A program made the position numbers and the translations under genes. A stretch of DNA of 61,726 nucleotides from positions 1-61,726 of the forward strand of contig CALIBN010000018.1 in NCBI GenBank assembly GCA_938045545.1, written 5' to 3'. Under the pieces are notes generated by a model. It did no database searches, was not told the DNA's origin, and saw only the letters and a program-made list of their open reading frames with translations. Below are positions 31,810 through 39,280 of the stretch, in pieces (the first letter of the stretch is position 1; each line of letters begins with the position of its first letter). The DNA comes from an uncultured archaeon (GTDB lineage Archaea > Thermoproteota > EX4484-205 > JAAOZP01).

Positions 31810-32181
31810 TTAGGGCCTTGGCGCTATCTACTCCTAAGTCCTTCTTTAGCCTTATCGGACTTTCAAGTGGAATCTCCGGAATCAGGCGGAGAAGCGTGAT
31901 ATCCTGGAGGTTTCAGCTACATAATTCTAACATCAGGCTTAGCTTATAGTACGTATCCACCTTAGGAGGGGTGAACCTGCCTGATTTGATACAGGCCGAG
32001 GCAAGAGACAAGTGCTGCACTTCAGAGTTACTCCCATGATCTTAACCTTTTCCATAACGCACTTGTAAACTAGGCATAGAATCCTTCTCGAAAGATGACA
32101 CCCGACGCACAGCCCGAGTTTGAGATAATCACATTTATGGCACGACTTTCCACACCTTAAAGGGCCATGTGGAACACGCAT
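31810..32181 (-). pseudogene. Decayed paralogue of the Cys-rich TGT-like gene at 37136
   Basis: Similar Cys spacing (CGKSCHKCDY..LCVGC..CLVYKC versus CGFDCRGCPY..LCRGC..CLIAQC). After a frameshift and an in-frame TGA it continues DITLLRLIPEI versus KIGFERFIPQI. Confidence 0.6.
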
Positions 32182-35548: not shown

Positions 35549-36238
35549 ATGACCAGCGATTACCGTGGGGAGGTCCGTAGGCTCTACGACACCATATCCG
35601 AGGAGTTTGATAAAACGAGGGTTAGACCAGACCTCTTTCTTGAAAAACTGGTTGACAGAGGTTTTTTAAGGGAAGCCGGCTTAATACTTGACAATGGTTG
35701 CGGAAACTGCAGGAACCTGAAAGCGCTTAGAGGCAGAACTATGGTTGCAGGAGACTTTTCGCGAAACATGCTTAAACAATGCGTGAAAAACGCTTCTGGA
35801 AGAGAGGTTCACTATGTGCAGTACGAGTTAACACACCTGCCTTTCAGGAACAGGGTTTTCGACAGCATAATATGCATTTCAGCAATACACCATTTGAGAG
35901 AGAACGATGCGGAGAAGGCTCTCAGAGAGATGAGAAGGGTTCTGAGCGACAGGGGATGGATGCTTGCCTCCTCATGGTCGATAAAGACGACTAGGGATAG
36001 GAAGTTTCTACGCAGGGCTAGAAGGATCAGTGGGAACTATTTCATGGTAAACTGGGGGCCGCATAGAAGATTCTACTTCCTCATCGACGGGAAAACCTTT
36101 AGCAAGATGTGTAATAAGGCAGGCTTCAGAGACGCGATTACCCTAGAATACGGTATGAACAATTACAGCCTAGTGGACAGGAGAACCAGAGAAGCCGGAG
36201 CACGTGGAGAGGCTTCAACTGATAAAAATAATAGATGA
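35549..36238 (+). CDS. Class I SAM methyltransferase (Trm9-like); C-terminal tail supplied by the island repeat
   Basis: YDTISEEFDKTR, LDNGCGNCRN, LPFRNRVFD, ISAIHHL. Confidence 0.8.
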   Translation: MTSDYRGEVRRLYDTISEEFDKTRVRPDLFLEKLVDRGFLREAGLILDNGCGNCRNLKALRGRTMVAGDFSRNMLKQCVKNASGREVHYVQYELTHLPFRNRVFDSIICISAIHHLRENDAEKALREMRRVLSDRGWMLASSWSIKTTRDRKFLRRARRISGNYFMVNWGPHRRFYFLIDGKTFSKMCNKAGFRDAITLEYGMNNYSLVDRRTREAGARGEASTDKNNR

Positions 36239-36239
36239 G
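36191..36239 (+). repeat. 49-bp direct repeat, copy 1
   Basis: GAAGCCGGAGCACGTGGAGAGGCTTCAACTGATAAAAATAATAGATGAG. One mismatch to 39077..39125. Confidence 0.95.
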
Positions 36240-36337
36240 CAAAGGGAGAACACAATGCCCTATTAGGCCTCTCATATATGTGTAGTCACTAAAAGCACGA
36301 GATTGCTTCATTACCTTCAGATCTTGAAAGATCGCTC

Positions 36338-37024
36338 TTATATCCGATCAAGCCAGACATGAACTTCATCCTCCCAAGTTTCTACATCCTCGATCTCAAG
36401 ATCGTCGACGCTTACGTTTAACTTATAACCCAAGACCCGCTCTGCCAGACCTTCCTTTATTAACTTATTAGTTAAAGAATCTAAAAACTCCTTTGTATCC
36501 GAGAAAAAGTGATGAACAACTTCGATAAGTATCTTGTTGGCCCGATGGGATTCTAATTCACAAAGTAGGCAGATCTCTGGAATGAATACTACTTTTTTAC
36601 CTTTCATAACTTCCCTAACCCTAGGATCCACGCCGAACTTCTCAGCGATATTTTTCATCAGCTCCTCTAATTTGCTTTCCACTTTTTCCATCGGATCCCG
36701 ATACTGCATGCTAGCCGAGGAGACGGAATTAATCAATTGAACCACAACAAAATCCACTTTGGTACTTCCCTGAAGGAGTGTCACGTCGAATAGGTGCTGA
36801 GCCAGATTACCAATACCTTTAGGACTGGTTACAAATGCGGTGACGGTATAGATAATTCCCTCCTTTCTCTCTCTTGCCAGAATCCACACGCCGCATTCTT
36901 TAACGCTTTCATTCCACCTTTTGCTAACATACTTCTCACAATTCCTTCCGACATCCTTGAATTCCTCACCCCAATACCAGACAGTAACACCTTGCCCCTT
37001 TCCCTCTCCTTCCCTTGTGTTCAT
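36338..37024 (-). CDS. Hypothetical protein (island)
   Basis: Clean 228-aa ORF divergent from the TGT-like gene. No motif recognised. Confidence 0.7.
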   Translation of the reverse strand: MNTREGEGKGQGVTVWYWGEEFKDVGRNCEKYVSKRWNESVKECGVWILARERKEGIIYTVTAFVTSPKGIGNLAQHLFDVTLLQGSTKVDFVVVQLINSVSSASMQYRDPMEKVESKLEELMKNIAEKFGVDPRVREVMKGKKVVFIPEICLLCELESHRANKILIEVVHHFFSDTKEFLDSLTNKLIKEGLAERVLGYKLNVSVDDLEIEDVETWEDEVHVWLDRI

Positions 37025-37135
37025 TCACTGACTTTATTCAATTAAGACCTATTTATATGCTCCGATACTGATGCTACAATTATCACCAGAGGATACAAGA
37101 AAGAGTTTTATTCTAGCTCAATTTTTAGGGTCGTA

Positions 37136-38248
37136 TTGCCTAGAAAAGGATGGTGCGGCTTTGATTGCAGGGGATGCCCGTATTTTCATAAGCTCTGCCG
37201 TGGTTGTTCTTTCAAAATGTGCCTCATAGCACAATGCCAGAGAGGTTTCCAATATACCGGAATAACCTATCCCAAATCCTTCTGCAGGCTCCGGCCTTAC
37301 TGCCCAATTAAAACGGCAAATAGACCCTCTGTGCAAATATCTTCATTAAGCAAAAGGTCTATGACCAAAATCGGTTTCGAAAGATTCATCCCTCAAATCG
37401 ATATCAGTGATAAAAAGTCGTGGTTCTGGAGGCATGGCGTAGAATTGCCAGAAATATTTGTTCCTCTTTGGCAGCTCTTGATTAATGAGAACCTCCTTGA
37501 AGATGTCTCCTCAAAAGGCTTGCATGACTTCTTAGGGTTTAATGGAAAGATTTTCCTTTCGATGGTGATGCCAGACGAGCTTCTCGATAAGCTTAGGCTT
37601 AAGGATTATTTCAGGCTGGTTGAAAATCTTGGGCCGGATGCTACAATGATTCCAGACAACTACACTTACGTAGATGACCCGCTTTTCCTATCATGGTCTC
37701 AGACAGTTAAACTCGTTTCCCTCGCCAACGACTTCCTAAAGCTGGACACACCCTTAATCGGCTTGATTAAGGGTTCTAATCCTCTTCAGGTTGATTGGGC
37801 TATTAGGAGGCAGGTTGAAATGGGCTACGTTTCCTTCGCGATGCCCGCTAGAGAACTTTTAGAGGATAACCTGCTTGACGATCTTTTACCTGGGGCCATT
37901 ATGAGCCTTAAATGGATCTCGAAGAGGACTAAAACGGATTTCGAGCTATTAGTATATGGCGTAGGCCGTAGGCTGAAATATGGAGGGCTTAGCTACAGCA
38001 ATCTTTTTTGGTTTCTAGAGGCTAAACAAGGACACTACTTTAAAGGAGGAAAATTGTACAGCTTCAAAGATCCGGAAATCAGGTTTGAAGAGTGCACTTG
38101 TGAAGCATGTAGAGGGATGATGCCGCAGGAATTGATCGACCTGATGCTATGCGATAAGGAGCTGGGTCTCAAGACACTTGCTCTCCACAACCTACTCGAC
38201 ATGAATAGAGCTTTTAACGAGAGGAAGGTAAATGGGCGGGGGCTCTAG
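37136..38248 (+). CDS. Cys-rich N-terminal domain fused to a divergent tRNA-guanine transglycosylase (TGT)-like fold
   Basis: GLHDFLGFNGKIF, LGPDATMIPD, LIGLIKG, LLVYGVG and C-terminal Zn site CTCEAC...LALHNL. The DSGG motif is absent. Confidence 0.65.
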   Translation: MPRKGWCGFDCRGCPYFHKLCRGCSFKMCLIAQCQRGFQYTGITYPKSFCRLRPYCPIKTANRPSVQISSLSKRSMTKIGFERFIPQIDISDKKSWFWRHGVELPEIFVPLWQLLINENLLEDVSSKGLHDFLGFNGKIFLSMVMPDELLDKLRLKDYFRLVENLGPDATMIPDNYTYVDDPLFLSWSQTVKLVSLANDFLKLDTPLIGLIKGSNPLQVDWAIRRQVEMGYVSFAMPARELLEDNLLDDLLPGAIMSLKWISKRTKTDFELLVYGVGRRLKYGGLSYSNLFWFLEAKQGHYFKGGKLYSFKDPEIRFEECTCEACRGMMPQELIDLMLCDKELGLKTLALHNLLDMNRAFNERKVNGRGL

Positions 38249-39143
38249 GGTTAAGCAGTATGAAAGGAGATTCTTCGAGGGAGAGCAAGTACGAGGAGAA
38301 AGAGAAGAAGAGTCCTTTCATGTCTTAAGGACCTTTGAGAAATATGAAGTTCGCGAATCAGAAGGCGGCGGATATGAATTGCTTAAAGGTGGTGAAGTTA
38401 TCGGAATCTTTTCTGAAGCCAAGGTCGAGGAAGGCAGAATTGTTTTTACGCTGGGTAAAGGAATGAGTTTGGAAATTTTAGAGAGAAAAGCTAGAGAAAT
38501 ACTTGCTCCAGGAAAAGCAGAGTTATGCGGTCTAATAGCTTCTGACGGTGGAATTTACATTAATAGTGAGAAAGGCGTATACGAGGTTTATTTCGATAGT
38601 GAGGATAGGGAACTCGCCGAACTTTTCATTAACTTAATTGGAGAAGTCTATCACGAAACTGCTCGCGATTACATCCGTTTTGAAGACACGGGAGAAGGGA
38701 AGAAAACTTACCATAAGCCAAGGATATACAGCAAGAAGATAGCTTACGATTTAGCGGACCTAGGCATTAAGGGGCCAGAGGACTTTGAGTTCCATCCGCC
38801 TTTGAACCATTTAGACGAAGAAGGGAAAAGAGCATACTTAAGGGGTTTCTTCTCTGGCGACGGAAACATCTCCATGACAGGAGAGCGCGTCCATAGTATT
38901 CGTGTCTACTCAACATACAAGGAAGGGTTGGAAGAAGTGAGACAGATGTTCATAGACTTAGGATTTCATCCTCACGAGATTCGCACAGACCATAGGAAAC
39001 CAGGATGGCGCGATCTACATAGTTTTACTATTCCTGCAGAGGACCACCTGAAATTCATAGAGGAAATAGGCTCTAGGAAGCCGGAGCACGTGGAAAGGCT
39101 TCAACTGATAAAAATAATAGATGAGAGGAAGGAGAAGGATTGA
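38232..39143 (+). CDS. Free-standing double-motif LAGLIDADG homing-endonuclease-like protein
   Basis: ELCGLIASDGGI and YLRGFFSGDGNI motifs. No intein Cys1 or His-Asn termini. Confidence 0.85.
   Translation: MGGGSRVKQYERRFFEGEQVRGEREEESFHVLRTFEKYEVRESEGGGYELLKGGEVIGIFSEAKVEEGRIVFTLGKGMSLEILERKAREILAPGKAELCGLIASDGGIYINSEKGVYEVYFDSEDRELAELFINLIGEVYHETARDYIRFEDTGEGKKTYHKPRIYSKKIAYDLADLGIKGPEDFEFHPPLNHLDEEGKRAYLRGFFSGDGNISMTGERVHSIRVYSTYKEGLEEVRQMFIDLGFHPHEIRTDHRKPGWRDLHSFTIPAEDHLKFIEEIGSRKPEHVERLQLIKIIDERKEKD
39077..39125 (+). repeat. 49-bp direct repeat, copy 2 (3' end of the LAGLIDADG gene)
   Basis: GAAGCCGGAGCACGTGGAAAGGCTTCAACTGATAAAAATAATAGATGAG. Confidence 0.95.
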
Positions 39144-39205
39144 AACAGGGGTTAAGGTTAAAACTTTTTAACCACTTTTTTGTTGTTAAAAACGGAAAAA
39201 GAACC

Positions 39206-39280
39206 GCGGCGCTGGTCTAGCCTGGTTAGGACACCAGCCTTCCAAGCTGGGAATCCCGGGTTCAAATCCCGGGCGCCGCA
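39206..39280 (+). tRNA. tRNA-Gly(TCC)
   Basis: GCGGCGC/GCGCCGC acceptor stem, CCAGC-CTTCCAA-GCTGG anticodon arm, GGTTCAAATCC. Confidence 0.95.

Follow-up and report, generated by a model that had tools for sequence, protein, structure and literature searches.

A mobile, tRNA-linked three-gene cassette pairing a TGT-fold protein with a LAGLIDADG nuclease in Brockarchaeota-type archaea

Archaeal tRNA genes are classic landing sites of integrase-bearing elements, and pressure from these elements has been proposed to underlie the evolution of tRNA introns and of split tRNA genes. In fungal mitochondria, free-standing genes of the LAGLIDADG or GIY-YIG type act as mobile open reading frames (ORFs), which enter a host gene at its 3' end and supply a duplicate of that end, and in phage T4 the endonuclease gene SegB lies in the tRNA gene region. 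Here we analyse a 61,726-nucleotide (nt) stretch of archaeal DNA (the window), contig C18 of a 2.03-Mb Brockarchaeota-type assembly (G000), in which three genes, denoted U, T and L, lie between a methyltransferase gene and a tRNA gene. These genes are one copy of a multicopy mobile cassette and not an isolated island. As a comparison system we use the free-standing homing endonuclease genes that spread by 'intronless homing', the Seg/Mob genes of phage T4, as presented in parts of two published accounts (PMC2790892, PMC13096335). Among the titles and opening lines of abstracts covered by a literature search, we found no published description of a T-L-U cassette.

The cassette and its immediate surroundings in the window comprise the following features.

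35549..36238, + strand: host gene for an S-adenosylmethionine-dependent methyltransferase (MT; Pfam Methyltransf_11, E 1.8e-19)
36191..36250, + strand: left direct repeat DR1, which duplicates the final 60 nt of L and is 92% identical to 39077-39136
36338..37024, - strand: U, third cassette gene, an orphan protein of 228 residues, inverted relative to the usual order T>L>U
37025..37135, unstranded: divergent U/T intergenic region, presumed to hold promoters from a reading of the sequence only
37136..38248, + strand: T, a TGT-fold protein of 370 residues with a TTG start, 13 Cys, an N-terminal Cys cluster and the TGT zinc site
38232..39143, + strand: L, 303 residues, an N-terminal domain of about 95 residues followed by a double-motif LAGLIDADG nuclease
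39077..39136, + strand: right direct repeat DR2, native to L as its 3' end; L paralogues have homologous C termini
39206..39280, + strand: intron-less tRNA-Gly(UCC), called by ARAGORN and Rfam

An earlier, sequence-only reading of this DNA had described a repeat-bounded three-gene island with overlapping T and L genes beside tRNA-Gly(UCC), and ORFs, a repeat search and tRNA callers confirm that description: T and L overlap by 17 nt in different reading frames, and 62 nt separate the L stop from the tRNA gene. The 60-nt direct repeat (55 of 60 positions identical) exceeds in length the other ten repeat families detected in 4.6 kb, the runner-up having 23 nt at 78% identity. DR1 translates to L residues 282-302 with 81% identity, and the last ~13-15 codons of MT are sequence derived from the 3' end of the L gene. 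GC content is ~43-44% inside the island versus 46-49% in the flanks, where the neighbours (AspRS, RadA and MT upstream; RNase P Rpp21, MarC and LeuA downstream) are ordinary archaeal housekeeping genes.

Searches of G000 with tblastn and profiles recovered seven full-length T-L-U sets, four remnants and two T fragments at contig edges, with a cassette size of ~2.7-2.9 kb; U has 15 matches within its own genome. The full sets and remnants are located as follows.

C10, 27165-29820: full set
C11, 31069-33729 and 57754-60454: two full sets
C12, 31747-34365: full set
C18: full set, the window copy
C40, 9738-12395: full set
C42, 45196-47897: full set
C10, 92570-92728: remnant
C12, 77574-78554: remnant
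C16, 38103-38846: remnant
C47, 13927-14878: remnant

Proteins of these paralogous cassettes are 30-73% identical and several copies are frameshifted; the family is old, diversified and partly decaying. When the 6-kb flanks of 11 G000 copies are compared, the only genes they have in common are T, L and U. All copies outside the window lineage have their genes arranged as T>L>U on a single strand, so that the divergent U, which the sequence-only reading had presented as part of the layout, is a feature of one sublineage. In some copies the L start immediately follows the T stop. Read-through of TAG as pyrrolysine was considered for T paralogues and rejected, as the apparently internal TAG is the T stop, with L starting directly after it in the same frame. 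At C11 57754-58422, the middle of U (profile positions 94-189) lies on the strand opposite to both U ends, either through an internal inversion or as an assembly artefact.

T homologues occur in 21 of 41 related genomes, all from one order: 13 of 16 congeners and 7 of 9 other genomes of the order carry them, against 0 of 15 from other families of the phylum outside it. Public relatives are all 'hypothetical proteins' from Brockarchaeota/Thermoproteota metagenome-assembled genomes. Among 80 metagenomic loci, 42 T genes have at least 2 kb of downstream sequence; L comes next in 34 of these, and both L and U in 29. The eight without L are distant T genes (43-46% identity). At the three such loci examined (L183 6045-7208, L187 6042-7622 and L193 6051-7931), the next gene encodes a protein of 387-626 residues that matches no Pfam family and shares with L only the N-terminal MGxGxRxxQ..RF motif, and orphan proteins of 381-404 residues follow; this arrangement may be a cassette variant with another effector domain. 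A layout with U upstream on the minus strand in metagenome contig L141 was not counted, since the U fragment, 550 nt away from T, could be part of a neighbouring copy. Comparison of the cassette at G006:C24 (L062) with that at G000:C42 gives 99% identity for U, 97% for L and just 84% for T, with different adjacent tRNA-Leu genes, a mosaic that suggests module exchange between cassettes.

Recurrent co-occurrence and tRNA adjacency, the features for which the sequence-only reading had proposed a gene-neighbourhood survey, were both found. T, L and U recur together, and for 9 of the 11 evaluable copies in G000 a tRNA gene is at most 150 nt away (Ala-CGC, Met, Ala-GGC, Thr-UGU, Gly-UCC, Leu-UAA, Leu-UAG and two untyped). 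With just 25 ARAGORN tRNAs in the entire assembly, fewer than 0.1 tRNA-adjacent copy would be expected by chance. Across all sources, a tRNA lies within 250 nt of 24 of the 44 canonical cassettes that have at least 260 nt of flank on each side (18 by ARAGORN and 6 more by Rfam), a count that is a lower bound because both programs miss many intron-bearing archaeal tRNAs. Three further canonical cassettes have a tRNA-Met at ~325 nt, and those with no nearby tRNA include a lineage in which the T start overlaps the stop of a Ham1-family gene (ham1).

Among 25 canonical copies, 11 are bracketed by direct repeats of 21-135 nt with 92-100% identity, as are 12 of the 44 in the wider set, and in these copies the repeat is the 3' part of the target. 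One repeat copy covers part of the intact tRNA, a spacer of 7-12 nt and the final 1-19 nt of U; on the opposite side of the cassette lies the other, which duplicates the tRNA 3' part but is truncated at its 5' end. Both orientations of the cassette relative to the tRNA are seen. In the ham1 lineage, the repeat is a perfect 135-nt duplicate of the ham1 3' end. Two cassettes with 86% nucleotide identity over 2.9 kb reside at loci with no flank homology, one at tRNA-Leu(UAG) in G009 and one at tRNA-Leu(CAG) in G003, and the truncated remnant in each genome carries its local anticodon, which suggests that either the repeat copies have recombined with each other or each integration was a fresh one.

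Congeners present the window locus in three states. Besides G000, it is occupied in G006 (90.5% nucleotide identity) and G007 (85-89%). In G008 and G009 the gene order is AspRS-RadA-MT-tRNA-Gly-Rpp21-MarC-LeuA; U, T and L are gone, and a single 60-nt repeat remains as the tail of MT. The alleles of G010, G002, G016 and G003 have no repeat, and their MT ends 7-13 codons earlier, the L-derived tail being present only in the occupied and single-repeat alleles. We read these types as occupied, scarred by repeat-by-repeat deletion and pristine; empty sites of the kind that the sequence-only reading had suggested looking for in relatives thus exist in two forms. A 9.4-kb contig from a hot-spring sequencing run of a separate study (X7) joins position 36223 to 39111, skipping 2887 nt, and so represents the scar form. 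Native sequence restarts ~15 nt past the L stop, at the tRNA-Gly promoter-like TAAAACTTTT; the insert therefore spans ~36189-39155 and replaces the last codons of MT.

The cassette has also passed between families together with its tRNA gene. G021 and G022 belong to another family of the order, and their RadA, AspRS, MT and Rpp21 are 30-68% identical to the window proteins. Their DNA aligns with window positions 36334/36351 to 39280/39283 at 87.6-88.8% nucleotide identity in a single unbroken alignment that extends from the U stop to the final base of tRNA-Gly. The cassette-linked tRNA-Gly is intron-less and identical to that of the window at 75 of 75 bases in G021 and 74 of 75 in G022. Cassette-free members of the same family (G019, G025 and G024) have, upstream of Rpp21, a tRNA-Gly(UCC) gene with a 14-15-nt intron in the anticodon loop and another insert in the 3' acceptor region. 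In native tRNA-Gly(UCC) genes of this family (loci L045 1348-1436, L046 1344-1432 and L051 1892-1983), the second insert measures ~30 nt and separates the T arm from the 3' acceptor strand; ARAGORN mis-ends or misses these genes. In the native tRNA-Gly of G021, the 5' acceptor strand reads ACGACA instead of GCGGCG, owing to three uncompensated G>A changes, and in G022 only a decayed trace of the native gene is left. The simplest reading of these sequences is that the cassette came with its own tRNA-Gly, after which the native gene would have become dispensable or been damaged. At the corresponding locus upstream of Rpp21 in L048 (G023:C1), the tRNA-Gly gene is truncated or split: after sequence that looks coding, only its 3' part (T arm, insert and acceptor strand) is present.

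T is the best-conserved protein of the cassette. Its Cys-rich N-terminal 75 residues, omitted in the public gene call P0001 (295 residues), are coding, because they are conserved at the protein level in paralogues; C7, C11 and C14 (CX3CX2C), C21, C29, C34 and C50 are invariant, and C24 and C56 nearly so. By sequence, T matches Pfam TGT over residues 318-362 only (E 2.3e-5; 24.1 bits, below the 26.3-bit cut-off) and scores 15.7 against a threshold of 47.6 for NCBIfam tgt_general. The structural model (pLDDT 87.2, pTM 0.86, with lower confidence at the N terminus) has the archaeal enzyme ArcTGT (1iq8) as its best Foldseek match (E 6e-12, TM-score 0.63 on the query), followed by bacterial TGTs, and the T family profile reaches 1iq8 by sequence at E 2e-10. 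Foldseek thus upheld the TGT fold proposed for T by the sequence-only reading and returned no fold match for U. The TGT zinc site CxCxxC...H (C320, C322, C325 and H351) is invariant in 29 of 29 sequences. When T is aligned to 1iq8 with HMMER, D95 and D249 of Pyrococcus horikoshii ArcTGT, the catalytic aspartates of TGT, correspond to the invariant S142 and to S288, respectively, and the base-binding D130 corresponds to the invariant D174. As aligned, T lacks both catalytic aspartates of TGT. The invariant residues S142, D147, D174, D180, K212 and E240 lie just past the barrel strands of the model, on the usual catalytic face, and T looks from the model like a working protein with a different chemistry or ligand. 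Neither T nor U matches any PADLOC family at E up to 0.01.

The T superfamily comprises 377 clusters at 50% identity. In one branch, of 500-660 residues (for example L092 and L095), the Cys-rich TGT-fold domain is fused to a calcineurin-like metallophosphoesterase. This family is multicopy in G000, where all copies seen are fragments (C1 18049-18348; C10 57192-57947 and 88483-89192; C16 33423-34180 and 50649-50852; C42 14706-14861), and it looks to be decaying as well. One further remnant of this second T-like family was noted in the window at 31996-32160 on the minus strand. Canonical ArcTGT (full-length Pfam TGT) was found in 0 of 17 genomes of the window's genus (G000-G016, ten of them at least 90% complete), the lone match being a cassette T at 26.4 bits, and in 22 of 24 genomes of other genera (E 1e-33 to 1e-86). 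This distribution suggests that archaeosine was lost in the genus with the largest number of cassettes.

L begins with MGxGxRxxQ..RF in its ~95-residue N-terminal domain, which is followed by two LAGLIDADG motifs that match Pfam LAGLIDADG_3 (PF14528; E 1.6e-16, two stretches). The acidic residues of the motifs are conserved: D210, like G211, is invariant in 24 of 24 sequences, and the D105 column is at least 85% conserved. The L-type N-terminal domain also heads the unrelated longer proteins downstream of distant T genes. A predicted T-L complex gave a median score of 0.46 versus 0.00 for the best control, with partner pLDDT of at least 81 and at least 70% of contacts common to the runs. In calibration, 18 of 157 solved complexes attained scores of up to 0.60, as did both (2/2) mismatched pairs that passed; the prediction therefore lends weak support to a complex, as most passes of this type are false when the pairing was not a likely one beforehand. 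U, modelled with AF2 at pLDDT 92.9, has two alpha/beta halves and no match to a solved fold (best Foldseek PDB E 0.012; best Z 5.9 in the wide VIA-align search); the VIA matches concern a generic beta-alpha-beta-beta-alpha-beta half and include little-finger domains of Y-family polymerases at Z ~5. Profile searches for U gave a best PDB E of 0.41 and no Pfam (nothing above threshold), PADLOC or PHROG match, and a word-index homologue search returned five relatives only. In the ESM Atlas, the best score for U was 0.87, and restriction-enzyme and PD-(D/E)XK clusters at 0.84-0.85 serve as leads only. U was discarded as a candidate HUH or tyrosine recombinase, as it has no invariant His or Arg; it is a conserved accessory protein of the cassette.

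Repeated co-occurrence, polymorphism among congeners and the near-identical copy in another family favour the homing-driven mobile cassette that the sequence-only reading had offered as one of two interpretations. In our view, the cassette is probably a selfish element that moves within and between Brockarchaeota-type genomes by a nuclease-started, recombination-dependent route, with the 3' parts of tRNA genes or a few protein-gene 3' ends as its landing sites. Which component cuts what, and how recombination proceeds, we infer as follows. L would make a site-specific double-strand break, and host homologous recombination would install the cassette, with an occupied allele as the donor for gene conversion or with an excised copy entering through ends-in (Campbell-type) integration. 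The cassette would bring a copy of the target's 3' part or, here, a whole tRNA-Gly gene; the target gene would therefore stay functional and the displaced remnant would form the direct repeat. Recombination between repeats would then delete the cassette and leave a one-repeat scar. T may serve as the DNA-acting partner of the nuclease, its base-exchange residues gone and its conserved polar face and zinc site kept. The borrowed segment of a conserved gene would supply homology to whatever new host is entered and would also allow the target to remain whole, and ends-in integration of a copy cut within that segment would yield near-identical repeats, local-anticodon remnants and one-repeat scars.

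Several observations weigh against this account. The founding event at the window locus and the layout in G021 do not fit a clean model. The window repeat is L sequence, not target sequence, and is missing from the pristine alleles; the founding insertion here therefore cannot have been cleanly homologous. The two tRNA-Gly copies form an inverted pair around the cassette in G021 and G022, an arrangement that cannot be obtained by a single crossover. Simple homing predicts that the nuclease site is destroyed, yet an intact target and a repeat 92-100% identical to it both persist, and the immunity of occupied alleles would be explained only if the site lies at the repeat boundary or is protected. 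Moreover, 20 of the 44 canonical cassettes have no tRNA call within 250 nt, and four tyrosine-recombinase genes elsewhere in G000 could act in trans. No circular forms were found (0 of 35 small whole metagenome contigs had terminal overlaps of 15-200 nt, a weak test), and neither cleavage nor excision was observed. Schemes based on inversion or circular permutation were tried for the U-inverted form and for the inverted tRNA pair of G021, and none fits all junctions.

The main alternative, which we consider possible although rather unlikely, is that the cassette is a site-specific integrative element whose repeats are att sites and whose dedicated recombinase is either a new one (T or U) or a tyrosine recombinase supplied in trans by the host or another element; L would then have another role, such as killing cassette-free alleles. 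Intact tRNA, cassette and 5'-truncated tRNA 3' copy make up the architecture of archaeal tRNA-targeting integrative elements, and the scars keep exactly one repeat, but a repeat length that varies from 21 to 135 nt within and between lineages speaks against such an element. As to the recombinase, G000 encodes four Phage_integrase-family genes (404-450 residues), and T is both best conserved and endowed with the invariant polar residues S142 to E240 on its catalytic face; however, no integrase is found in or next to any cassette, the flanks of the 11 G000 copies share only T, L and U, and U has no recombinase-like fold or motif. The 35 small whole contigs, again a weak test, yielded no circular one.

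The other interpretation in the sequence-only reading, a restriction-modification-like module in which T exchanges a DNA base in the manner of DpdA to mark self and L cuts unmodified DNA for defence or addiction, has become very improbable. Ser occupies the positions of both catalytic aspartates (S142, invariant, and S288), even though the fold and zinc site are those of TGT and the invariant D174 is aligned with a base-binding Asp of ArcTGT, D130. Translational coupling and a weakly predicted interaction connect T with L, but T falls below the Pfam TGT cut-off, neither T nor U matches PADLOC, the flanks have no preQ0-pathway or DpdB-like gene in common, and many copies are frameshifted or fragmentary. 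We give hardly any credence to a non-mobile paralogous family that benefits the host, for example in tRNA-gene maintenance or processing, and has expanded beside tRNA genes. The tight tRNA linkage and the missing canonical ArcTGT in the window's genus would suit such a family, yet it is largely refuted by presence/absence polymorphism at one locus, in the form of occupied, scar and pristine alleles, and the near-identical cross-family copy, the decayed copies and the cassettes at protein-gene ends stand against it too.

A more far-reaching version of a mobile cassette, which we think unlikely but worth stating, is an integrase-free DNA integration machine in which T, derived from an enzyme of RNA base exchange, would now act on DNA as an enzyme or as a targeting subunit and work with exchangeable nuclease modules: LAGLIDADG here, a fused metallophosphoesterase in the sister family and other domains in distant cassettes. 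The nuclease would linearise an excised copy within the borrowed tRNA segment, and the ends would invade any homologous tRNA gene. If so, such cassettes would drive tRNA-gene turnover in Thermoproteota, replacing intron-bearing genes and leaving pseudogenes and truncated or split copies.

For the preferred reading of a selfish, recombination-dependent cassette, the significance lies in a very small element with no integrase that occupies a large share of a lineage's tRNA genes, with some ten loci in a genome of 2 Mb. A case is documented in which the intron-less tRNA gene of the element supplants a native two-intron gene. A TGT-fold protein appears to have been recruited to a DNA-level selfish element after loss of its base-exchange residues, and to have been paired repeatedly with nuclease modules; if its activity can be defined, T could become a new sequence- or structure-specific DNA tool from thermophiles.

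Among known systems, the T4 Seg/Mob genes, as far as the parts of the accounts used here describe them, resemble the cassette in that the nuclease lies outside any intron or intein, is polymorphic among related genomes and spreads with flanking markers, here tRNA-Gly. Unlike them, the cassette consists of three conserved genes, uses LAGLIDADG instead of GIY-YIG or HNH, has long repeats of the target's 3' part and resides in archaeal chromosomes, with many diverged copies per genome at different tRNA genes. The mobile ORFs of fungal mitochondria share its position at a gene 3' end, with the gene kept whole and the displaced 3' remnant downstream; the cassette differs in targeting mostly tRNA genes and in that T and U are always co-carried. 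L itself, with two LAGLIDADG motifs per chain in an archaeal thermophile lineage, is akin to archaeal rRNA-intron endonucleases of the I-DmoI type, but it is not intron-encoded and has the conserved ~95-residue N-terminal domain. T shares the TIM-barrel fold and the CxCxxC...H zinc site with ArcTGT (1iq8) and the TGT/DpdA superfamily. It departs from ArcTGT in the Ser at both catalytic Asp positions, in an extra N-terminal cluster of 8-9 Cys, in the lack of C-terminal PUA-type domains and in being encoded in a mobile cassette, and from the Dpd DNA-modification defence system in that T and U match no defence model and the copies have no partner genes in common. Like archaeal tyrosine-integrase elements of the SSV, pNOB8 and pTN3 types, the cassette can be flanked by an intact tRNA on one side and by a partial 3' copy on the opposite side, and its precise loss leaves one copy; unlike those elements, it has no integrase, spans only ~2.7 kb and has repeats of variable length. 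Canonical cassettes carry the repeat of the tRNA 3' part at both ends, whereas in the window copy the 3' end of L takes its place.

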